Positions 2,192 through 22,240 of a stretch of DNA of 22,749 bases are shown here, in pieces. How positions within the stretch are numbered: position 1 is the first letter of the stretch; every line of letters starts with the position of its first letter. This DNA comes from a virus. The DNA lies in the UHGV virus genome UHGV-0233466, one strand, 5' to 3'. The notes under the pieces were generated by a model, which was not told where the DNA came from, did no database searches, and worked only from the letters and a program-made list of their open reading frames with translations. The translations under genes were made by a program, and so were the position numbers.

Positions 2192-2465
2192 CCTGCAACT
2201 TGCCGTTAAAGGTGAATACTTCGATGCCATGATTCGCGGAGAGAAAACGGAAGAGTATCGCCTGTGTAATGACTACTGGAATAAGCGAATTATGTTCCGC
2301 GAGTATGACCGCCTGATTATCACAAAGGGATATCCGAAGCGCGACGACTCCAGTCGCAGAATAGACGTCCCGTATGAAGGGTATGAAATCAAGACAATCA
2401 CACATCCGCACTTCGGAGATAAACCGGTAAAGGTGTTCGCGATAAAGGTGAATATTGATGGCTAA
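2184..2465 (+). CDS. ASCH-domain-like protein (93 aa)
   Basis: ATG at 2184 preceded by AAGGAGG; N-terminal pattern (KGEYFDAMIRGEKTEEYR) resembles ASCH/PUA-like fold proteins; overlaps neighbours at both ends. Confidence 0.5.
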   Translation: MANLQLAVKGEYFDAMIRGEKTEEYRLCNDYWNKRIMFREYDRLIITKGYPKRDDSSRRIDVPYEGYEIKTITHPHFGDKPVKVFAIKVNIDG

Positions 2466-2796
2466 ATCAGCAGCAGAGCGCAAAGCCGCTCAGAGAGCCA
2501 GACAAGCTGCATCTGGTGTGCGTAAGCTGGAAATTGTGCTTGATGCTCAGGAAATTGAAATGCTGGAGCGTAACTGTGCCACGCGTCGCCCCGGGCGTGC
2601 GCCTTACGAATTTGGTGAGTATATAGCGTTACTGATCCGCCAGGATGATGCACGCGTGCACGGGCGTATAAAATCGATCAGCAGAAAACGTTGCGGTAAG
2701 TGCGGCGAGAGAGTTCCTGTGAATTCATGCCCGTGTGATGGTGACTCGCAATGCTGGGTGACTAAAGGCTGGCATGAAACGAAATTAATAGTGTGA
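2458..2796 (+). CDS. Cys-rich (probable zinc-binding) small protein, 112 aa; candidate late-gene regulator
   Basis: ATG at 2458 overlapping the upstream stop; C-terminal CGKCGERVPVNSCPCDGDSQC cluster; sits directly upstream of the promoter-like/terminator pair preceding terS. Confidence 0.5.
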   Translation: MAKSAAERKAAQRARQAASGVRKLEIVLDAQEIEMLERNCATRRPGRAPYEFGEYIALLIRQDDARVHGRIKSISRKRCGKCGERVPVNSCPCDGDSQCWVTKGWHETKLIV

Positions 2797-2813
2797 CATG
2801 TCACGAGTAGATT
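2785..2813 (+). promoter_or_regulatory. sigma70-like promoter candidate (TTAATA, 17 bp, TAGATT) with the palindrome GTGACATGTCAC inside the spacer
   Basis: Hexamers at 2785-2790 and 2808-2813 with 17-bp spacing; palindrome at 2793-2804 lies between them. Confidence 0.3.
2793..2804. repeat. 12-bp perfect palindrome GTGACATGTCAC, copy 1 of 2 (14-mer TGTGACATGTCACG shared with copy 2)
   Basis: Read directly; overlaps the stop codon of the upstream CDS and sits upstream of terS. Confidence 0.85.
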
Positions 2814-2845
2814 ATGCATGATGAATTTGATGGGGTTTGAATACT

Positions 2846-2873
2846 GCCGCCAACTATGGCGGCTTTATTTTGC
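2846..2873 (+). terminator. intrinsic terminator between the accessory genes and terS
   Basis: GCCGCC-AACTAT-GGCGGC hairpin (2846-2863) followed by TTTATTTTG. Confidence 0.55.
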
Positions 2874-2917
2874 ATGATACTATTACCACAACGGTAACTA
2901 TTACCACGGTGGTTATG

Positions 2918-3511
2918 ATGCCTGCTGAACCTAAAGCCTATAAACGCAAATCAACGCAATTTAAGCCACTAACAGCAATGCAGGAGGCTTATTGCCAGTC
3001 ATACATCAAAACGCCTGAAAACCAGACTCAGGCAGCGATTAATGCAGGATTCTCCCCAAATACAGCGGCAGTTAAAGCCAGTGTCATGATGCGCGATGAA
3101 CGCATTCAAAAACGGATTGCCGAGTTGATGGAGGAGCGCAACAAACGAATGCGCGTCAGTGCTGATTACGTTCTCATGCGCCTGGTGGAGATCGACCAGA
3201 TGGACGTGATCGACATCCTCAACGACGATGGGAGCCTTAAGCCAATCCGCGAGTGGCCGAAAATCTGGCGCACTACGCTTAGTGGCTTTGATCTGTCATC
3301 GACCATCATGAACATGAACGAGGATTCGATAGAGACAATCCTCAAAAAAATTAAATGGCCTGACAAGGTGAAGAACCTCGAACTGATTGGTAAGCACGTC
3401 GACGTCAACGCATTCAAAGAACGCCTGGATGTTAATGTGAAAGTGACAATTGCTGATCGCATAGCAGCAGCCAGGAAGCGACTCAAAGAACGTCAGGATG
3501 GTAATCAGTGA
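2918..3511 (+). CDS. terminase small subunit (Terminase_2-like), about 197 aa
   Basis: ATG 2918 (or 2915) after GGTGG; motif LTAMQEAYCQSYIKTPENQTQAAINAGFS matches the conserved N-terminal helix-turn-helix of Terminase_2 small subunits; directly precedes and overlaps terL; the track start at 2837 is TTG with no SD. Confidence 0.8.
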   Translation: MPAEPKAYKRKSTQFKPLTAMQEAYCQSYIKTPENQTQAAINAGFSPNTAAVKASVMMRDERIQKRIAELMEERNKRMRVSADYVLMRLVEIDQMDVIDILNDDGSLKPIREWPKIWRTTLSGFDLSSTIMNMNEDSIETILKKIKWPDKVKNLELIGKHVDVNAFKERLDVNVKVTIADRIAAARKRLKERQDGNQ

Positions 3512-4983
3512 CAGATACAGCGTTATCTCCTGAAGAGCAGTTGATCGAGGATATTGCAGGGTTCACTCACGATCCGCTTGGCTATGCCCTCTATGCGTTC
3601 CCATGGGGGGAAGAGGGGACTGAACTGGCACATGCCACCGGCCCACGTCAGTGGCAGGCTGATGCGTTCCGAGAGATACGTGATCACCTGCAGAATCCAG
3701 AGACGCGCTATCAGCCGCTTATGCTGGCACGCGCTTCTGGTCACGGTATTGGTAAATCCGCATTCATCTCAATGCTGATCAACTGGGGCATGTCCACTTG
3801 CGAGGATTGTAAGGTCGTGGTGACCGCCAACACCGACAACCAGCTACGAACGAAGACCTGGCCGGAAATTATCAAGTGGTCGAACCTTGCTATCACGAAA
3901 GACTGGTTTACCTGTACCGCTACCGCGATGTACAGCAATGACCTAGGGCACGACAAGCGGTGGCGGGCTGACGCAATACCCTGGTCTGAGCACAACACCG
4001 AGGCATTCGCCGGACTACACAACGAGCGCAAACGCATCATCGTGGTGTTTGATGAAGCGTCGAACATTGCGGATCTGGTGTGGGAAGTTGCCGAGGGTGC
4101 GCTTACGGACGAAGACACTGAGATTATTTGGGTGGCGTTCGGAAACCCTACACGTAACACCGGGCGTTTTCGCGAATGTTTCCGCAAATATAAACACCGC
4201 TGGAAAACTGCGCAGATTGACAGCCGGACGGTGGAAGGCACTAACAAACAGCAGTTGCAGAAATGGGTTGATGACTACGGGGAAGACAGCGACTTCGTTA
4301 AAATCCGTGTGCGTGGCATATTCCCTGATGCATCTGAATTGCAGTTTATCCCTACCGGTCTTACTGACGAGGCAATGAAACGGGTGGTAACCGCTGCGCA
4401 GGTTGCACATGCTCCGGTGATAATCGGCGTTGACCCGGCATACTCCGGCGTTGATGACGCTGTGATATACCTGCGGCAGGGGCTACACAGTAAGGTGCTG
4501 TGGACTGGCAACAAGACTACCGACGATCTGATTATGGCGAAGCGTATCGCTGACTTTGAAGACCAGTATCAGGCTGACGCGGTGTTCATCGACTTCGGTT
4601 ACGGAACCGGTTTGAAGTCAATCGGTGACGGCTGGGGTCGTACATGGCAACTTGTTCCGTTCGGTGGCGCGTCTACTGACCCGCAGATGCTCAACAAGCG
4701 TGGGGAGATGTTCAATTCATGCAAGACATGGCTGAGGCTGGGCGGCATGCTGGATGACCAGGAAACAGCAGACGACCTGTCGGCGGCAGAGTACAAAGTT
4801 CGAGTGGACGGTAAAATCGTTATCGAACCGAAGGAAGATATCAAGGAGCGGCTTGGGCGTTCACCGGGTAAAGGCGATGCGCTACTGCTGACGTTTGCGT
4901 TCCCTGTGTCTAAGCGTCTGCGAATTCCCGGGCAGCAGAACCAGCAAGGCAAAGCCATCACAGACTATGATCCTTTTGCATAA
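3508..4983 (+). CDS. terminase large subunit (491 aa)
   Basis: GTG start at 3508 overlapping the terS stop, AGGATGG upstream; Walker A-like GHGIGKS near the N-terminus, acidic nuclease-domain motifs near the C-terminus (GVDPAYSGVDD); size and position. Confidence 0.85.
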   Translation: MTDTALSPEEQLIEDIAGFTHDPLGYALYAFPWGEEGTELAHATGPRQWQADAFREIRDHLQNPETRYQPLMLARASGHGIGKSAFISMLINWGMSTCEDCKVVVTANTDNQLRTKTWPEIIKWSNLAITKDWFTCTATAMYSNDLGHDKRWRADAIPWSEHNTEAFAGLHNERKRIIVVFDEASNIADLVWEVAEGALTDEDTEIIWVAFGNPTRNTGRFRECFRKYKHRWKTAQIDSRTVEGTNKQQLQKWVDDYGEDSDFVKIRVRGIFPDASELQFIPTGLTDEAMKRVVTAAQVAHAPVIIGVDPAYSGVDDAVIYLRQGLHSKVLWTGNKTTDDLIMAKRIADFEDQYQADAVFIDFGYGTGLKSIGDGWGRTWQLVPFGGASTDPQMLNKRGEMFNSCKTWLRLGGMLDDQETADDLSAAEYKVRVDGKIVIEPKEDIKERLGRSPGKGDALLLTFAFPVSKRLRIPGQQNQQGKAITDYDPFA

Positions 4984-5006
4984 AAAAGCCCGCGAATCGG
5001 CGGGCT
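4981..5006 (-). terminator. intrinsic terminator for the leftward 140-aa gene (may act in both directions)
   Basis: 7-bp stem AGCCCGC/GCGGGCT (4987-4993 / 5000-5006) with 6-nt loop; minus-strand transcript ends in UUUUUU (complement of 4982-4987). Confidence 0.55.
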
Positions 5007-5010
5007 GATT

Positions 5011-5022
5011 GTGACATGTCAC
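5011..5022. repeat. 12-bp perfect palindrome GTGACATGTCAC, copy 2 of 2
   Basis: Read directly; immediately downstream of terL and its terminator hairpin. Confidence 0.85.
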
Positions 5023-5026
5023 GGCG

Positions 5027-5449
5027 TTAGAAGGTTATTTTATCGAATGCGGCGTTGATTGCCTTGGCGTCCTGCTCAGCACCAACCACATCAAGTAAAG
5101 ATCTTTTACTAAGCACTTCAGCCAGGCATTGTAACTTCATGTTGTATAAGTTTTCGCGCATGTAATCATCATCACTTTTTTCTTTGGCGTATACAGCGCG
5201 AGAAATATCAAACACATTGCCTTTTTCCATTTCAGTTTTCTGCGCTGAAATCCAGTCATGGCAAGTAACTCCTATTCCATGGTCATCGCTAAGCGTTAAC
5301 CCGGCAAGTCGCTCACCTGGAATTGCTTCACAAAGCATTTCATTTCCTGCAAAAACACCATAAAAAATTGAATCATCACCCTGAACAATGCGTACATATT
5401 TGCACGGCCATTCATTTAGATATTTAGCTAGCATGTCGGCTGTTTTCAT
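5027..5449 (-). CDS. hypothetical protein (140 aa), orphan leftward gene inside the rightward late region
   Basis: ATG at 5449 (minus) preceded by AAGGTGA; clean 140-codon frame; lower GC than flanking terminase and portal genes; no TM segment or recognisable motif. Confidence 0.6.
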   Translation of the reverse strand: MKTADMLAKYLNEWPCKYVRIVQGDDSIFYGVFAGNEMLCEAIPGERLAGLTLSDDHGIGVTCHDWISAQKTEMEKGNVFDISRAVYAKEKSDDDYMRENLYNMKLQCLAEVLSKRSLLDVVGAEQDAKAINAAFDKITF

Positions 5450-5460
5450 GATCTCACCTT

Positions 5461-5484
5461 AAAAAAATGCCCGGCGACCCGGGC
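5461..5484 (-). terminator. intrinsic terminator on the minus strand abutting the SD of the 140-aa gene (attenuator-like)
   Basis: GCCCGG-GUCG-CCGGGC hairpin (5469-5484) followed on the minus strand by AUUUUUUU (complement of 5461-5468). Confidence 0.55.
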
Positions 5485-5560
5485 GAACTGGAAGCAATGA
5501 GTTATGCCTTCCGTGGCTGTACTGGTTTACAGCATGAAGTCATCGCAATGGCGTCCTGCT

Positions 5561-5604
5561 GTAAAAAGGGCGGTAATAGTCCTTCAAGGGAAACTATCAC
5601 CGCC
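5561..5604 (-). terminator. intrinsic terminator on the minus strand downstream of the tRNA
   Basis: 12-bp stem (5569-5580 / 5593-5604, one G-U pair) with 12-nt loop, followed on the minus strand by CUUUUUAC. Confidence 0.45.
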
Positions 5605-5647
5605 AAGCACCTGGAACTTCTGGCATCACGGTCCTTAGGCGTGATTC

Positions 5648-5724
5648 TGGCGTGGCATGCAGGATTCGAACCTGCGACCAACCGCTTAGAAGGCGGTTGC
5701 TCTGTCCAACTGAGCTAATGCCAC
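5648..5724 (-). tRNA. tRNA-Arg (anticodon TCT, decodes AGA), 77 nt with encoded CCA
   Basis: Hand-folded cloverleaf: acceptor GTGGCAT/ATGCCAC, D-arm GCTC...GAGC, anticodon stem ACCGC/GCGGT with loop CTTCTAA, T-arm GCAGG-TTCGAAT-CCTGC, discriminator G, CCA. Confidence 0.85.
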
Positions 5725-6151
5725 AACGCTGAGAGCACTTAGCCTGTTAAGGCGCCACACTTTGTCGCGGCTCCATAAATGCTCTCATCGTTGTACCCTC
5801 GTCTCTTCCGAGGCGTCACACCGAATCGCCGGGATGGTGAATCCCCGTGCGCGGAATAAAACCGCTCGACTTGCACATTCCGGCTACCTGGTTCGTTTGC
5901 CCGAGCAAGGGAGGGTGCCCCTTAAACGTATCCAGACCGCTATCGGCGCATGTGCCATACGCCGTACTGCTCAAAATAAAAGCTCACTCCACCTGTTCAA
6001 TTTAACGACAAGCCAGTCAGGTTAATAACCGGAATGAACCATTTGCTTACCTGAAAGGTAATAATTAGTGCGTTAAATGTCAACTATCTACGATAAATAA
6101 ATCATATGTGGTTAAATTGGTAATAATTTAATTTCGTACGGAGTCATTGAT

Positions 6152-8052: not shown

Positions 8053-8345
8053 CAGATTACGAAGACGATCAACTGAAAGAAGAAAACGCCCGTAAGCAAC
8101 GTGACATGGCACAGCGTGAAATTGATGACATTCGCTTTGTCATGAGCAGTGAACAGGGGCGTCGCGTTGTCTGGTCGGTGCTGGAGAAAGGTCGTGTGTT
8201 TTCCGCTATCTCACCGATGGACGCTATGGCAATGGCATTTAATGAGGGGCAACGCAATCTGGCGCTGGAACTGTTTCAGCGCGTTATGGCGCATTGCCCT
8301 GAACAGTATTTGAAGATGGCCAAAGAGGCCAGTGAACAGGAGTGA
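8049..8345 (+). CDS. hypothetical head-module protein (98 aa)
   Basis: ATG overlapping the portal stop (ATGA); charged helical composition. Confidence 0.5.
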   Translation: MTDYEDDQLKEENARKQRDMAQREIDDIRFVMSSEQGRRVVWSVLEKGRVFSAISPMDAMAMAFNEGQRNLALELFQRVMAHCPEQYLKMAKEASEQE

Positions 8346-11541: not shown

Positions 11542-14012
11542 TGGCTATCAGTTGGATCCAGCCCAGCTTTGCCGGTGGTGAGATTGGACCGTCGTTGTAC
11601 GGTCGTATTGACATGGCGAAGTACCAGGTGGCATTGCGCAAGTGCGATAACTTTATCGTGCGGCAGTATGGCGGAGTTGAGAATCGACCTGGTACGCGTT
11701 TTGTCGGTGCCGCCAAATACCCAAATCGGAAATGCCGCCTGATCCCGTTCCAGTTCTCGACGGTTCAGACTTATGCTCTGGAATTCGGACACCAGTACAT
11801 GCGCGTTATCAAAGATGGTGCGTTGGTGCTGAACAGCAGCAATGTTATTTATGAAATTGCCACGCCATATACTGAAGCCGATCTGTTCCGAATTAAATTC
11901 ACGCAAAGCGCCGACGTGCTTACGTTGGTTCACCCGGCATACCCGCCGAAAGAGCTGCGCCGCTATGCGCATGACAACTGGCAACTGGTTGATGTGGTAA
12001 CGAAGAACGGGCCATTTGAAGATATCAATATTGACGAGTCAGTGACGGTTTATGCCAGCGCCAGCACCGGGACAATTACGTTAACGGCAAGCGCCTCTAT
12101 TTTTGGCGCGGAGCAGGTAGGCAAATTGTTCTATCTGGAACAGCCTGCAGTGGATTCTGTGCCGGTATGGGAAACCAGTAAGAGTACGTCGATTGGCGAT
12201 ATTCGCCGTGCAGACAGTAACTACTATCGCGCCGTTACAGCAGGCAAAACAGGCACTTTGCGCCCTTCGCATACAGAAGGCACATCATGGGATGGCTGGG
12301 GCGGATCCGGTGATGATGATACTGGCATTGAGTGGGAGTATCTGCACAGTGGTTTTGGCATTGCCCGTATCACTGCTGCAAATGGCACTACTGCAACTGC
12401 TGAGGTGATTTCCTATATCCCTTCGCAGGTCGTTGGCGAGGATAATGCCAGCTATAAATGGGCTAAATATGCCTGGAACAGTGTTAATGGTTATCCTAGC
12501 ACTGTTGTTTATTATCAACAACGTCTTTACTTCGCCGCATCGACTGCGTTCCCTCAGACTATCTGGGCCAGCCGTACCGGGGATTATAAGGATTTTGGCA
12601 AAAGCAATCCTACGCAGGATGACGACAGAATTATCTACACCTATGCCGGACGTCAGGTTAATGAGATCCGCCACCTGATTGATGTTGGTTCTCTGGTGGC
12701 GCTGACTTCCGGAGGTGAGTACGTCATCACCGGCGACCAGAACAAAGTGTTAACCCCATCATCATTTGCATTCAGCTCTCAGGGATCAAATGGCTCAAGC
12801 AACGTCCCGCCAATTGCCGTGGCGAATATTGCTCTGTTCGTCCAGGAGAAAGGCAGCGTTGTCCGTGATCTGGCCTACTCATTCGATGTTGACGGCTATC
12901 AGGGGAACGACCTGACCATCCTTGCCAATCATCTTTTTCAGAAGCACAGCATTGTTGACTGGTGCTTCTCGATAGTCCCTTACTCCAGCGCCTTCTGCAT
13001 TCGTGATGACGGTAAATTACTGGTGATGACCTATTTGCGTGATCAACAGGTTTTTGCATGGGCACCACAGTCCAGTACCGGAAAATATGAAAGCACATGC
13101 AGTATCAGCGAAGGCAATGAAGATGCGGTGTATTTCGTCATTAACCGAACCGTTAACGGGCAAACAGTGAGATACATCGAGCGACTGTCCAGCCGTTTAT
13201 TTACCAGCGATGAAGATGCTTTCTTTGTTGATTCTGGCCTTAGCTATGATGGAAGAAATACGTCTGACAGAACGATGACCATCACTGGTGGTTCTGGCGA
13301 ATGGGATTACTGCGCGGAATATACAATCAGTGTTTCTGGTGGTGCGTACTTCACCAGTAGTGATGTCGGCGCGCAACTACAGTTCCCTTATACCGGAACT
13401 GATCCTGATACTGGCGATGAGGTGTCAAAAGAATTACGTTGCGACATTATTTCTGTAACCAGCAATACCGCTGTAGTGGTTCGTGCTAACAGGAACGTCC
13501 CGCCATCCCTCAGGAATGTGGCCACCACGAACTGGCAGATGGCGCGCCGGACATTTGGCGGCTTGTCTCATCTTGAAGGCCAGACCGTAAACATCCTCTC
13601 TGATGCGAACGTGGAACCACAGAAAGTGGTTTCCGGAGGTGCCGTCACGCTGGAATCACCTGGGGCTGTTGTGCACATCGGCCTGCCAATAACTGCTGAA
13701 TTCGAAACACTGGATATCAACATTAACGGACAGGAAACGCTGCTGGACAAAAAACAGGTGATCCCGTCCGTTACTCTGGTTGTGAATGCCAGTCGCGGCA
13801 TCTGGGCGACTACGCCCGGCGGTAAATGGTACGAATATCCACAGCGTGAATTCGAGTTCTACGATGATCCTGTTGATGATGCTACCGGAAAAGTAGAAGT
13901 GAAACTGGACAGTAACTGGGGCAAAAACGGACGTGTAAAAATCCGTCAGCTTGATCCGTTGCCGCTGTCTGTTCTTGCCGTTATTCCTCGCCTTACTGTT
14001 GGGGGATTCTGA
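11541..14012 (+). CDS. tail tubular protein B-like (T7 gp12-like nozzle), 823 aa
   Basis: ATGA overlap with the gp11-like gene; size close to T7 gp12; synteny. Confidence 0.5.
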   Translation: MAISWIQPSFAGGEIGPSLYGRIDMAKYQVALRKCDNFIVRQYGGVENRPGTRFVGAAKYPNRKCRLIPFQFSTVQTYALEFGHQYMRVIKDGALVLNSSNVIYEIATPYTEADLFRIKFTQSADVLTLVHPAYPPKELRRYAHDNWQLVDVVTKNGPFEDINIDESVTVYASASTGTITLTASASIFGAEQVGKLFYLEQPAVDSVPVWETSKSTSIGDIRRADSNYYRAVTAGKTGTLRPSHTEGTSWDGWGGSGDDDTGIEWEYLHSGFGIARITAANGTTATAEVISYIPSQVVGEDNASYKWAKYAWNSVNGYPSTVVYYQQRLYFAASTAFPQTIWASRTGDYKDFGKSNPTQDDDRIIYTYAGRQVNEIRHLIDVGSLVALTSGGEYVITGDQNKVLTPSSFAFSSQGSNGSSNVPPIAVANIALFVQEKGSVVRDLAYSFDVDGYQGNDLTILANHLFQKHSIVDWCFSIVPYSSAFCIRDDGKLLVMTYLRDQQVFAWAPQSSTGKYESTCSISEGNEDAVYFVINRTVNGQTVRYIERLSSRLFTSDEDAFFVDSGLSYDGRNTSDRTMTITGGSGEWDYCAEYTISVSGGAYFTSSDVGAQLQFPYTGTDPDTGDEVSKELRCDIISVTSNTAVVVRANRNVPPSLRNVATTNWQMARRTFGGLSHLEGQTVNILSDANVEPQKVVSGGAVTLESPGAVVHIGLPITAEFETLDININGQETLLDKKQVIPSVTLVVNASRGIWATTPGGKWYEYPQREFEFYDDPVDDATGKVEVKLDSNWGKNGRVKIRQLDPLPLSVLAVIPRLTVGGF

Positions 14013-17768: not shown

Positions 17769-20700
17769 TGCCAGTTTATGCACAAGCTGAAGATCTTAAT
17801 AACGGACTGATCCCGTCAGGTAATGTTTTGCCGGAACAAACTGGGTTTGATGTTGCCCTTCCGGAAGGGGCTAATCCTGAGCCATTGCCACCTGAGCCTT
17901 CCGTATGGGGGGCTGCAATGCGACAGAACAATATTCTGGCTGGTTTTTTCCGCCCAGCCAGACAGTTTGAACCGGTCGAAGGTTATAACCCATATGCTGA
18001 TAAAAATGAGTTGCACGGTTATGAATACTGGGGGGCGAAATTTGCAGATTCCCGATCGCCAGAGGAAACGGCGTGGATTAAGCAGCAGATAGATGATGAA
18101 AATGAAGACAGACGTTTATTGTCTGATGCTGGCGTAGTTGGAACCCTTGCCAGTATTGCTGCGGGAATGGATCCGGTTACTGTTGCGTCAATGTTTATCC
18201 CCGGTGCTCAAGGAGGGGCACTGGCGCGTATTGGCTCACAGATTGCGATTGGTGCTGCCGGTACTGCATTAAGCGAGGTTGTACTGAATAATCAGCAAAT
18301 AACACGCTCATGGGGTGAAAGTGCCGCTCACGTTGCAGCGGGTGCGATGATGAGCGGCGTGTTTGCCAGTGCTGGTGTTGCGCTTTCGCCATCAGTCCGG
18401 GCTGCAGCCACACGTGAGGTTGCTGATGCTCTTGATAATATGAGCATTACATCAGCGACTGACAGGGCTGCCGCTTCGCTTTCCGATGGTGGTAGTGTTG
18501 GTGCTATGAAAATTGATACAGCGACTCTGGATGATTTAACCCCTGTTTCTGGTGGGGTGGTTGGAAAGGCTGCATGGAAAGCAGGGAGCTATCTTACTCC
18601 TTTGACAAGGTTAATGGAGTCTCCGTCAAAGACAGTGCGAAAAACAACGCTGGAGTTAGCCGAAAATAATTTCACCCTTAAAGGAAATGAAAGGGGGATT
18701 GAAACACCGATAGCTGTAGAAACCCGTACACGTGGATGGCAGCGTGAAGAAGCTGCAGTTGTTGTCGGAAATAAACAGGCATACGCAAAGTATAAAGCTG
18801 ATGGTGGTGACATGAGTTTTGATTCATTTCGTCAGCAGGTTGGGAATGCGATGCGAAGCGGTGATGTTCATGCTAATCCTGTTGTTCAGGAAACGGCGCA
18901 GGCGATGCGAACTGTATTAAATCGGGTGAAAGTTGAAATGCAAAAGCTTGGTTTATTGCCGCCAGATGAAGAACTGAAAGCATTAGGTCAGGCAAGCTAT
19001 TTCCCACGTATATATAAAGTTGGAAAAATAATCAGTGAACGCGATAAATTTCGACGTATTTTGGTTGACTGGTGGTCGAGAGGCAATAAAACACTGGATC
19101 CTGAGGATGCTGAAATTGCAGCGGATATCGTAATTAATAAAATTACTGGTGCTAAGGTTCCACAGGATTTTGTCAGCGTATTTTCTGTAAAAGCCGCAGG
19201 TAGTACGAAAGAAAGAACATTAAATGTGCCTGATAGTCTTATCAGGGATTATCTCGAAAGTGATGTGAATTACGTGCTGCAACGTCATATCCGTGAAGCG
19301 GCAGCAGAAATTGAGTTGACGAGAACATTTGGCAAACGAACTATGGCTGAGCGTCTGCAATTAATTGAAGACGAATATGACAGTCTGTTACGGGAAGTGC
19401 CTGAAAAAATAAAGGCGAAATATGACGAAAGTGTGGCAAATCTGAAAGCACGTTATGAGAGCAATGGTGAAGTTGTTCCTCAGGGTAAACTCGATTCATT
19501 AATGCGAAAGTACGAAAAGGAATTACGGAAAGAACAGTCCAGACTTTCAAAATCAAGAGCAAATGATCTCAGAGACATAACAGCATTACGCGATCGTCTT
19601 GTTGGTACATATGGTATGCCTGATGACCCGTCTTCGTTTTTTGTTCGTGCTGGCGCTTTTCTGCGGGATGTGAACTTCACGACCAAACTCGGTGGAATGA
19701 CAGTATCAGCTATTCCAGATCTGGCCAGAGGGGTTATGGTTAATGGTTTCCGTAACACCATGAAAGGCTATGCTTCTCAGATATCCCAATCACCGGCATT
19801 TAAGGCCAGCAAAGAAGAGATGTTGAAGATGGGGATTGGATTGGAAACTGTACTACATTCACGTTCTCGTGCAATTGGTGATCTTGTTGACAGTTCTTCC
19901 AGGACAACAGCAGTCGAAGCAGGAATGGAGCGAATTACTGATGCCTTCGGCAAGCTGACACTCATGGATCGATTTAATGACATAAACAAATCCATGAACG
20001 GAATGCTCACGTCAGACGGTATTTTGTCTGGTGCGTTTTCTGCACGTCGCATGGCAAAACTCGGTATCAACGACAATATGGCTGCGCGTATTCGCAGTGA
20101 GTTCGAGAAACATGGTGAGGTAATTGATGGATGGCACATTGGTAACTTTGATAAATGGGACGATCAGTACGTTGCCGGAGTATTCCAGTCAGCGGTTCTG
20201 AAAGACGTTAATAACACTATCATCACCCCCGGTATTGGTGACACACCTTTATGGGCGAGTACTCCAATGGGGCGAACGATATTTCAGTTTAAATCATTCA
20301 CAACGGCTTCATACAACCGTGCGCTACTTGGTGGGCTACAGGAAGGAACTGCGCAATTTTATTATGGCACTGCATTTCAGATTGCTCTTGGCTCACTGGT
20401 CTATGCGCTTAAAGAAGCATCGAAAGGGAAAAATGTTGACTGGTCACCAGAGAAGCTGGTGCTTGAGGGTATAGATAGATCCGGTATTCTTGGGCCATTG
20501 ATGGAATATAACAACATGGCTGAAAAGGCTACTGGTGGTGCTGTTGGGCTGGGGGCTTTATTTGGCACTGGCACACAGTCTAGGTATGCCAGTCGTGGAT
20601 TCGTAGGATCTCTATTCGGACCGTCATTTGGTCTTGCGGATAGCATCATTGATGTGACCGCAGGAGTGTTGAATGGTGATGCCGGTGATCGTATTGTGCA

Positions 20701-20793: not shown

Positions 20794-21357
20794 TTAGCAT
20801 GATTCAGGGGAAACCCCAATATTAAATATGAGTGACTCCCCTGAATCAGCATAATAATGTAATATTATTGACTTACGTTGTTTTCTTGCTTCGTAGAATA
20901 AACGCTCTTGCGGCGATAATTTGTGAAAACTGCCGGATGCACAATATATGTTTTTTAACTTTTCGCTGGTTGCTTTTATTGTATCTTCTGAGATGTATTT
21001 TAGGTATTTATCCGTATAGATGTTGCTACTATAAGAAATTAATGTTTTGCTGTTGTTGTGATGTATTGTATTTTTATCGTTGAAGTCTGTATTTTTATTT
21101 ACTGTCATTAGGTTTTTAATGATTACATGTAATACAATAGTCTCCCCATCATCAATTCCATATTTGATGTCATAGTCAGTATATTTATTTGTTATACCGC
21201 TTCCTGATAGCGGCACTATGTACTCTGAGAAAAATGAGTTTGCCGCGTGACCATCAAGAGCAATAGCTGTTTTTTTGTGGTAAAAATAAAACAATATTGA
21301 GAGAGTCAAAATAATAGCGACGCCTAATGCAACCTTTAATATAGATATGGTTTTCAA
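20794..21357 (-). CDS. AT-rich membrane-anchored protein (about 187 aa from a TTG start with a strong SD; alternative ATG at 21384); positional analogue of a superinfection-exclusion gene
   Basis: AGGAG (complement of 21365-21369) 7 nt upstream of TTG at 21357; N-terminal hydrophobic helix ISILKVALGVAIILTLSILFYFY followed by an Asn/Tyr/Lys-rich soluble domain; GC far below the neighbouring virion genes. Confidence 0.5.
   Translation of the reverse strand: MKTISILKVALGVAIILTLSILFYFYHKKTAIALDGHAANSFFSEYIVPLSGSGITNKYTDYDIKYGIDDGETIVLHVIIKNLMTVNKNTDFNDKNTIHHNNSKTLISYSSNIYTDKYLKYISEDTIKATSEKLKNIYCASGSFHKLSPQERLFYEARKQRKSIILHYYADSGESLIFNIGVSPESC
20800..20848. repeat. 12-bp perfect inverted repeat TGATTCAGGGGA / TCCCCTGAATCA with 25-bp spacer, at the junction of the virion module and the AT-rich leftward module
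   Basis: Read directly; overlaps the 3' end of the leftward membrane-protein gene; contains an inner GGGG-AAA-CCCC hairpin. Confidence 0.8.
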
Positions 21358-22167: not shown

Positions 22168-22240
22168 AACAGCGAAGCCCAACGGTGGCCAGACCGTCAT
22201 GGCTTCAGTATCGTAAAACTACGTATAGGAATTAACGACA
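22165..22240 (-). ncRNA. predicted sar-like small antisense RNA covering the ant translation start
   Basis: Minus-strand promoter TTGATA (complement of 22269-22274), 17 bp, TATACT (complement of 22246-22251), giving a start near 22239; minus-strand terminator hairpin GAAGCC...GGCTTC (22174-22206) followed by GCUGUUUU; same arrangement as P22 sar. Confidence 0.4.

Follow-up and report, generated by a model that had tools for sequence, protein, structure and literature searches.

What reads the paired palindromes that flank the terminase genes of an epsilon15-like prophage, and what might be controlled there? The question is raised by a stretch of 22,749 nucleotides of the UHGV virus genome UHGV-0233466 (this whole stretch is called the window below), in which the same perfect 12-bp palindrome, GTGACATGTCAC, stands on either side of terS and terL. 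The paired palindromes are real, strongly conserved and far from chance. They occur together with a family of small proteins in many temperate phages, and the sites are most likely bound by the Cys-rich protein that is encoded just upstream.

Exact copies of GTGACATGTCAC are present in the window at 2793-2804 (site A) and 5011-5022 (site B). An original prediction, made from the letters of this DNA, had reported two identical palindromes within a shared 14-mer, and both were confirmed exactly; the 14-mer, TGTGACATGTCACG, lies at 2792-2805 and 5010-5023, however, the second interval having been placed one base off at 5009-5022. Both copies had also been described as intergenic, which does not hold for site A: its TGA (2794-2796) is the stop codon of an open reading frame (ORF) of 112 amino acids (aa) at 2458-2796. 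Site B is located between the stop of terL (4983) and the stop of a minus-strand ORF of 140 aa (5027-5449).

2793..2804, no strand: site A, perfect palindrome GTGACATGTCAC, 41 nt upstream of the terminator preceding terS.
5011..5022, no strand: site B, GTGACATGTCAC again, between the convergent terL (plus strand) and 140-aa moron gene (minus strand).
8101..8112, no strand: one-mismatch copy GTGACATGGCAC within a 98-aa ORF after the portal gene; its membership in the set is uncertain.
2458..2796, plus strand: gene of the 112-aa protein (epsilon15 gp49 / phiV10 p55 / N15 gp46 family), candidate binder of the palindromes.

Perfect 12-bp palindromes number five in the window versus 6.0 expected. 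One such palindrome occurring twice was obtained in 15 of 2000 first-order Markov simulations of the window, and matches to the 12-mer with at most one mismatch number three versus 0.08 expected. The remaining perfect 12-bp palindromes, TGCACGCGTGCA at 2649-2660 (within the 112-aa gene), CCTTCCGGAAGG at 17857-17868 and ATTACATGTAAT at 21122-21133, occur once each. The position of the one-mismatch copy is kept in phiV10, PAS61 and TL-2011b and was not kept in the scanned relatives from Salmonella, Enterobacter and Klebsiella; the same variant is also found 33 bp from a perfect copy in a Yersinia P2-like phage. The comparative evidence for the palindromes is far stronger than this within-window statistic.

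The general form of the motif is GTGAC-N2-GTCAC, and it is strictly specific for the length of the spacer. When GTGAC-Nk-GTCAC was counted for k = 0-10, the 12 genomes carrying the protein yielded 34 copies at k = 2 versus 0-1 at any other k, 1.29 Mb of 80 related loci yielded 125 versus 0-2, and 0.88 Mb of 49 N15-like loci yielded 105 versus 0-1, many of these counts coming from related genomes and hence not being independent. The half-sites are invariant and the central dinucleotide varies by clade, being AT in the epsilon15-like phages, ZF40 and the Yersinia phage, TG or CA in the N15-like phages and RC or CC in the Vibrio phages; a constant half-site with a clade-specific centre is what one would expect if each half-site were recognised by conserved residues. 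The control consisted of 1.25 Mb of DNA from lambdoid E. coli phages, which had been fetched around NinG and contains no homologue of the 112-aa protein. No AT-centred copy was found there, and a single inherited GT-centred site was present in four loci. The motif is thus not something that enterobacterial phage DNA carries in general, nor is it an effect of base composition. Frequent occurrence throughout the host or phage genome regardless of context had been named in the original prediction as one outcome that would speak against it; the motif is nearly absent from this control.

The window represents an epsilon15/phiV10-like prophage (a podophage of the genus Uetakevirus) with 95-98% identity to that group; its best match is PAS61, and the gene order of the tail part is that of TL-2011b, to which its layout is closest. 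Phages of this group (epsilon15, phiV10, PAS61, SPN1S, Tyrion, BUCT711, BUCT554 and TL-2011b) carry two to four copies of GTGAC-N2-GTCAC per genome, usually three exact copies of GTGACATGTCAC: site A at the stop codon of the 112-aa gene, site B after terL, and site C at the end of the structural operon, directly before a terminator. Site C is found in TL-2011b after the ant gene, at 32282, and by synteny with this phage it is predicted approximately 470 bp past the end of the window, which would account for the presence of only two copies in it. It had been proposed that the palindromes bracket the terminase operon as one unit. They do flank terS-terL here; however, this framing is too narrow because relatives carry the third site at the end of the structural operon.

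Site A occupies the same junction in epsilon15, SPN1S, Tyrion, PAS61, TL-2011b and BUCT711, and site B is kept in epsilon15, phiV10, SPN1S, Tyrion, BUCT554 and PAS61. The expectation that close relatives with the same gene order retain both junctions was borne out for site A, which is kept in 77 of 80 related viral contigs, but not for site B, which is absent from TL-2011b and others. Anchored comparisons across phages of four host genera (Escherichia, Salmonella, Enterobacter and Klebsiella) revealed complete conservation of the 12-mer (100% identity) at each of the three sites A, B and C, versus 55-59% identity in the ungapped 40-bp flanks. A degenerate fourth copy (GTGACATGGCAT or GTGACATGTCAT) is present in epsilon15 (26618-26629) and SPN1S (26722-26733), where it overlaps the stop codon of the last lysis gene, Rz, beside the attachment region. 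Counting this copy, four rightward unit ends may be marked.

The protein encoded upstream of site A consists of a basic N-terminal helix, a core resembling the ribbon-helix-helix (RHH) fold and a C-terminal Cys4 knuckle. An AlphaFold prediction based on an alignment of 34 sequences reached a mean predicted local distance difference test (pLDDT) score of 83; the protein models as an RHH fold with a Cys4 zinc knuckle, and the beta-alpha-alpha arrangement of the Arc/MetJ/CopG class is found in the model. From the E. coli to the Vibrio homologues, the basic residues R8, K9, Q12 and R13 and the cysteines C79, C82, C93 and C99 are invariant. Searches against Pfam, NCBIfam and the PDB sequences gave nothing significant for the 112-aa protein; PF10723 (RepB-RCR_reg) is recorded for three Vibrio homologues, and the scan reached only E = 0.034 for one member. 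A match to PHROG 536 provides a generic label only, and the database labels of N15 gp46-type proteins read 'transcriptional regulator' or 'hypothetical'. The family comprises 233 clusters at 50% identity, and its members are nearly all stand-alone proteins with a length of roughly 105-135 aa. In epsilon15-like, Vibrio and Aeromonas phages, the gene closes the early region, and the late genes follow directly.

Homologues were detected by tblastn in 153 phage records of very different kinds. Every homologue-bearing genome or segment examined carries the motif or a recognisable variant of it, among podo-, sipho- and myoviruses alike. The following phages lie outside the epsilon15-like group, with the identity of the homologue given for each.

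ZF40 (myovirus), 65% identity: TGTGACATGTCACA 2 nt after the stop codon, and two copies flanking the cI-cro-cII region.
N15 gp46, 36% identity: GTGACTGGTCAC on its own stop codon, one copy inside repA and one at the end of the repA operon.
Yersinia P2-like phage, 40% identity: one perfect copy and a near-copy.
Vibrio phages K308 and PhiPS02, about 30% identity: three copies each at matching positions, one of them about 20 nt before terS.
Aeromonas phage 14AhydR10PP, 30% identity: two identical diverged copies, GTGACCGGACAC, at 251 and 3032.

The site on the gp46 stop codon is present in 49 of 49 N15-like loci. N15-like plasmid prophage loci that reach far enough carry a copy of GTGACTGGTCAC 4.5-6.5 kb upstream of gp46, and in N15 itself this copy is the one inside repA, at 33237, about 620 nt from the repA start; this position hints at a control of replication-gene transcription. 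The two flanking copies of ZF40 are found at 5125 and 7622, and in ZF40-like phages they are about 2.1-2.5 kb apart, one per divergent early operon. In the Aeromonas phage, the most distant homologue-bearing phage examined, GTGACCGGACAC is no longer symmetric, and one copy is located 25 bp before the start codon of the homologue. When viral contigs were scanned for the 14-mer TGTGACATGTCACA, at least 20 of 80 loci among the matches listed had a homologue within the short stretch; for contigs that carry two sites but show no homologue in the part retrieved, the phage collection contained no usable complete relative. The leading idea of the original prediction, a dyad-symmetric site for a dimeric regulator, is the best-supported reading from these comparisons, and the 112-aa Cys-rich protein, which had been named there as a candidate, is the best candidate binder, given the co-occurrence in very different phages and the modelled RHH fold.

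Where do the sites stand relative to transcription units? The window comprises, in order, the end of the early-right operon, site A, terS, terL, a variable moron slot with a tRNA, and the portal and structural operon. The features next to the two sites are listed here.

2846..2872, plus strand: intrinsic terminator GCCGCC-AACTAT-GGCGGC with T-tract (hairpin 2846-2863), which ends the early-right unit downstream of site A.
2837..4983, plus strand: terS (2837 or 2915 to 3511) and terL (3508-4983), identified by PHROG and Pfam matches and the annotation of relatives; the unit between A and B.
4979..5006, minus strand: intrinsic terminator of the 140-aa gene (hairpin 4987-5006) with a minus-strand T-tract; site B abuts its 5' side.
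5027..5449, minus strand: variable moron gene, 140 aa, PHROG 4846; its 3' end faces site B.

The hairpin equivalent to 2846-2872 is annotated as a rho-independent terminator in the epsilon15 record. Site B is situated 4 nt from the hairpin at 4987-5006, on the side without a T-tract. A survey of 242 unique contexts from all fetched loci, related sequences included and the counts hence not independent, placed the palindrome 5' of a terminator-like hairpin in 83 contexts and on the T-tract side in 15. Among the 83, the distance to the hairpin was 0-4 nt in 50 and about 40 nt, as at site A, in 30. A strict terminator was found within 60 bp of about 31% of the sites versus 3.7% of random windows. 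As a rule, the sites stand directly 5' of an intrinsic terminator hairpin or at a gene junction. Other settings are intercistronic junctions, where the site overlaps a stop codon and directly precedes a Shine-Dalgarno sequence, and the interior of genes.

Two more specific ideas on this anatomy were set aside. At site A, a promoter-like sequence (2793-2822) matches nine of 12 positions, and GTGACA agrees with the -35 hexamer at five of six; it is one weak match, the region contains three such matches versus 4.3 in shuffled sequence, and the -10 candidates picked by eye are inconsistent between clades. After terL, TL-2011b (about 13740-13770), which lacks site B, has a hairpin preceded by an A-tract and followed by a T-tract, i.e., a two-way terminator, and where palindrome B is present, the plus-strand T-tract is missing at this hairpin. 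The two-sided T-tracts of TL-2011b made it attractive to assume that the hairpin and a bound protein replace the missing T-tract. This was rejected as a firm mechanism because a polymerase halted by a roadblock protein that sits 4 nt beyond the hairpin would still have part of this hairpin left to transcribe.

Taken as a whole, it is somewhat probable that the palindromes are the operators of the 112-aa RHH protein, which would control the passage of RNA polymerase at the boundaries of transcription units; within this proposal, most of the weight lies on the identity of the binder and less on the sign of the effect. It starts from the motif and its spacing rule, the conservation, the co-occurrence with the protein family, the modelled fold and the adjacency to terminators; that the 112-aa protein binds the sites, and that it blocks rather than promotes read-through, is what we infer beyond these. 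Dimers of the protein, or a dimer of dimers, would recognise GTGAC/GTCAC half-sites exactly 2 bp apart. The sites would represent the 3' ends of three successive rightward units, namely the early-right unit (A), terS-terL (B) and the structural operon (C). As the last product of the early operon, the protein would accumulate and then occupy A, B and C, thereby setting how much transcription crosses each boundary. In the simplest form of this proposal, it would be a barrier that works in either orientation, backs up the terminators and shields the late operons from convergent moron genes. A bolder version, which is tentative and rather doubtful, is that this RHH and zinc-knuckle family reads a site equal to 'matS minus one base', matS being the chromosomal site of the host protein MatP, and serves as a transcription-boundary factor that stops or releases RNA polymerase at operon 3' ends and at points inside early operons (repA of the N15-like plasmid prophages, both immunity arms of ZF40-like phages).

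Several observations weigh against a boundary operator of the 112-aa protein. The site locations differ by phage type, flanking the immunity region in ZF40 and lying inside repA in N15, and sites within coding regions (N15 repA, the cII-like gene of ZF40, a virion gene of BUCT711) do not fit the term 'boundary'. Gene 3' ends are not where classical repressors or activators act. Site B is missing from TL-2011b and from roughly one third of the 80 related viral contigs, and is dispensable there. The Klebsiella phage ST16-OXA48phi5.3 and related contigs carry a single exact copy and no detectable homologue; in this 29-kb record, the TGA of the copy (7537) is the cro stop codon and its ATG the start of the next gene. 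This lineage came out of a scan of 2.9 million viral contigs in which the motif itself was the query, so that some chance or orphan sites are to be expected. To these points are added the dependence among the spacer counts mentioned above and a literature search for the 12-mer, GTGACNNGTCAC and palindromes at epsilon15 late genes or terminators, which returned nothing on the motif.

The same protein and sites could also work with the opposite sign, as a late switch that allows read-through of terminators in the manner of lambda Q or activates promoters for terS-terL and the late operons. This main rival is unlikely. In its favour, the 112-aa gene closes the early region, the order of site, terminator and late genes at A mirrors the Q-binding element (QBE)/PR'-tR' arrangement, the palindrome precedes the terminator in 83 of 98 oriented cases, and the Vibrio phages have a site about 20 nt upstream of terS. 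Moreover, the epsilon15-like phages lack any annotated late regulator, be it Q or another, and the GTGACA hexamer with the weak match from 2793 could suggest a promoter. However, this match is no better than in shuffles, the epsilon15 record predicts separate repressor-controlled promoters for the late operons, and the canonical terminator at B belongs to the minus-strand moron gene. Q-like antiterminators are already present in ZF40 and N15, several sites (the N15 46/47 junction and several contigs) directly precede a Shine-Dalgarno sequence without any terminator, and RHH proteins are not known as antiterminators. Less probable again is an RNA element, in which GUGACAUGUCAC would form a stem-loop at the transcript 3' end for mRNA stability, processing or an RNA-binding factor. 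A palindrome gives identical RNA in either direction, the sites are transcribed at unit 3' ends, 0-4 nt ahead of terminator hairpins, and a stem of 4-5 bp with a tetraloop is predicted beside the terminator, its loop bases varying by clade while the stem is kept. This stem never covaries, however; its GUGA and UCAC letters are the same in phages ranging from those of Vibrio to those of E. coli, and the unpairable C5 and G8 are conserved as well, which argues for sequence-specific reading of half-sites rather than for structure and disfavours a role of the RNA. The stem is also very weak, and it is broken in the Aeromonas version, in which two 5-bp blocks resembling half-sites are retained. Some sites fall within genes or on the side of a T-tract that is not transcribed, and Rfam finds only a tRNA and a sar RNA in the window.

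That a host protein, with MatP as the obvious lead, or another phage protein reads the sites is improbable. The phage motif equals the matS consensus minus its central base, one phage lineage carries the motif without the 112-aa protein, and the motif-bearing phages infect Enterobacterales, Vibrio and Aeromonas, which are hosts that have MatP. However, copies with the spacer of three number 1, 0 and 0 versus 34, 125 and 105 with the spacer of two in the three sets counted above, and a symmetric dimer normally no longer binds when the spacing is altered by 1 bp. Occurrence of the motif follows that of the phage protein, and other E. coli phage DNA is nearly free of it; the centre of the motif varies with the clade of the phage protein rather than with the host, and matS is reportedly avoided by prophages. 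The least credible reading is that the palindromes are terminase (pac) recognition sites or short linkers for recombination of the terminase module. The sites do flank terS-terL here, variable genes start right at the palindromes, and the Vibrio phages also have a site before terS. A headful pac site would serve the phage's own terminase, lie in or next to terS and track the terminase type; instead, three dispersed copies are found per genome, the third at a distance of 17 kb from terS-terL. N15 is a cos phage, and its three copies all lie away from cos and from the terminase genes; the ZF40 sites surround the immunity region. The terminase recognition site considered in the original prediction is thus unlikely, as the motif follows the 112-aa family and not the type of terminase. 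The exchangeable module proposed there fared better in one respect, in that variable moron genes do begin right after the sites; this, however, is expected at any transcription-unit boundary, and 12-bp identity does not establish a role in recombination. Ordinary homologous exchange needs more than 12 bp, and the strict spacing and complete identity point to recognition by a protein.

Beyond the operator sites, the surroundings of terS-terL hold further features. Relatives carry different alleles in the slot of the 140-aa moron gene, and the junction falls at the palindrome. A second dyad motif, TTACC-N5-GGTAA, is present at 2883-2897, 2901-2915 and 6047-6061 (three matches versus 0.35 expected), just upstream of terS and of the gp3-portal operon and thus at the 5' ends of those units; the equivalent sequences are annotated as prophage-repressor operators in the epsilon15 record. 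Each rightward unit therefore opens with this operator and closes with the palindrome. The variable slot between terL and the portal operon also contains a tRNA-Arg (anticodon TCT) at 5648-5724 on the minus strand, which overlaps the 3' end of an 83-aa plus-strand ORF (5467-5718) that is annotated as a gene in some records. Near the end of the window, Rfam reports a sar RNA at 22171-22238 on the minus strand (43.6 bits versus a gathering score of 43); in P22, sar is the antisense RNA of the immI region. This agrees with the Arc-like repressor and Ant genes that TL-2011b carries at the corresponding position, so that the window ends within an arc-ant antirepressor module.

The timing of late genes in epsilon15-like phages and the role of the N15 gp46-type proteins are the gaps addressed here. 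The analysis provides a testable pairing of a protein family with GTGAC-N2-GTCAC at defined positions in epsilon15, phiV10, SPN1S, N15 and ZF40. If the protein controls read-through at operon ends, it would be a new type of boundary control in phage gene regulation and would offer a compact orthogonal protein-operator pair. Should the bolder version apply, doubtful as it is, a mechanism of late switching or insulation distinct from the Q, N and Ogr/Mor types would be common to podo-, sipho- and myoviruses, and a phage boundary factor and the host Ter-organising system would have their half-sites in common.

The pair of regulator and site is previously undescribed; its general kind is known, and its placement is unusual. 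Lambda Q (QBE/PR'-tR') and N/nut resemble it in that the regulator gene is at the end of the early region and the cis site just upstream of an early/late terminator (site A and 2846-2872). However, homology to the Q or N families was not found in Pfam and NCBIfam searches and the PDB gave no Q-family match, ZF40 and N15 possess Q-like proteins in addition, many sites have no downstream terminator, and no promoter or pause signal could be established. RHH repressors such as P22 Arc, Mnt, plasmid CopG and omega of pSM19035 likewise use short palindromic or 7-bp-spaced sub-sites, and TGTGACA/TGTCACA may be seen as two inverted heptads, which we take to be comparable to the omega heptads. The operators of these repressors overlap promoters, whereas the phage sites are found at gene 3' ends, near terminators, at junctions and inside genes; the 112-aa protein also has the extra zinc knuckle, and its family is not in Pfam. 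The SlmA site, GTGAGTACTCAC, is likewise a 12-bp palindrome that starts with GTGA and ends with TCAC, but the four central bases differ at the conserved AG/CT positions of its consensus. Perfect half-sites are shared with the CRP site, TGTGA-N6-TCACA, which requires a gap of 6 bp, in contrast to 4 bp here.

The closest likeness is that to MatP/matS. The half-sites GTGAC and GTCAC are identical, the phage 12-mer corresponds to GTGACATTGTCAC minus its middle base, and MatP also binds via an RHH core preceded by a basic helix. matS is defined as GTGAC[AG]N[TC]GTCAC with the consensus GTGACATTGTCAC (PMC3603311, PMC8669397), and prophages are reported to lack or avoid it; the relation by one base to a host site that prophages otherwise avoid raises an evolutionary question. 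Membership of the phage pair in this system fails on the 2-bp spacer, the spacer-3 counts of 1, 0 and 0 and the lack of MatP homology at the sequence level: matS has a spacer of three and is nearly absent from these phages (0-1 copies), hhalign gave a probability of 0.1%, and no PDB sequence matched. MatP contains a four-helix bundle and a coiled coil, where the phage protein has a Cys4 knuckle instead, and whereas 23 matS sites are distributed over 800 kb of chromosome, the phage motif marks a few operon ends in a genome of 40 kb.

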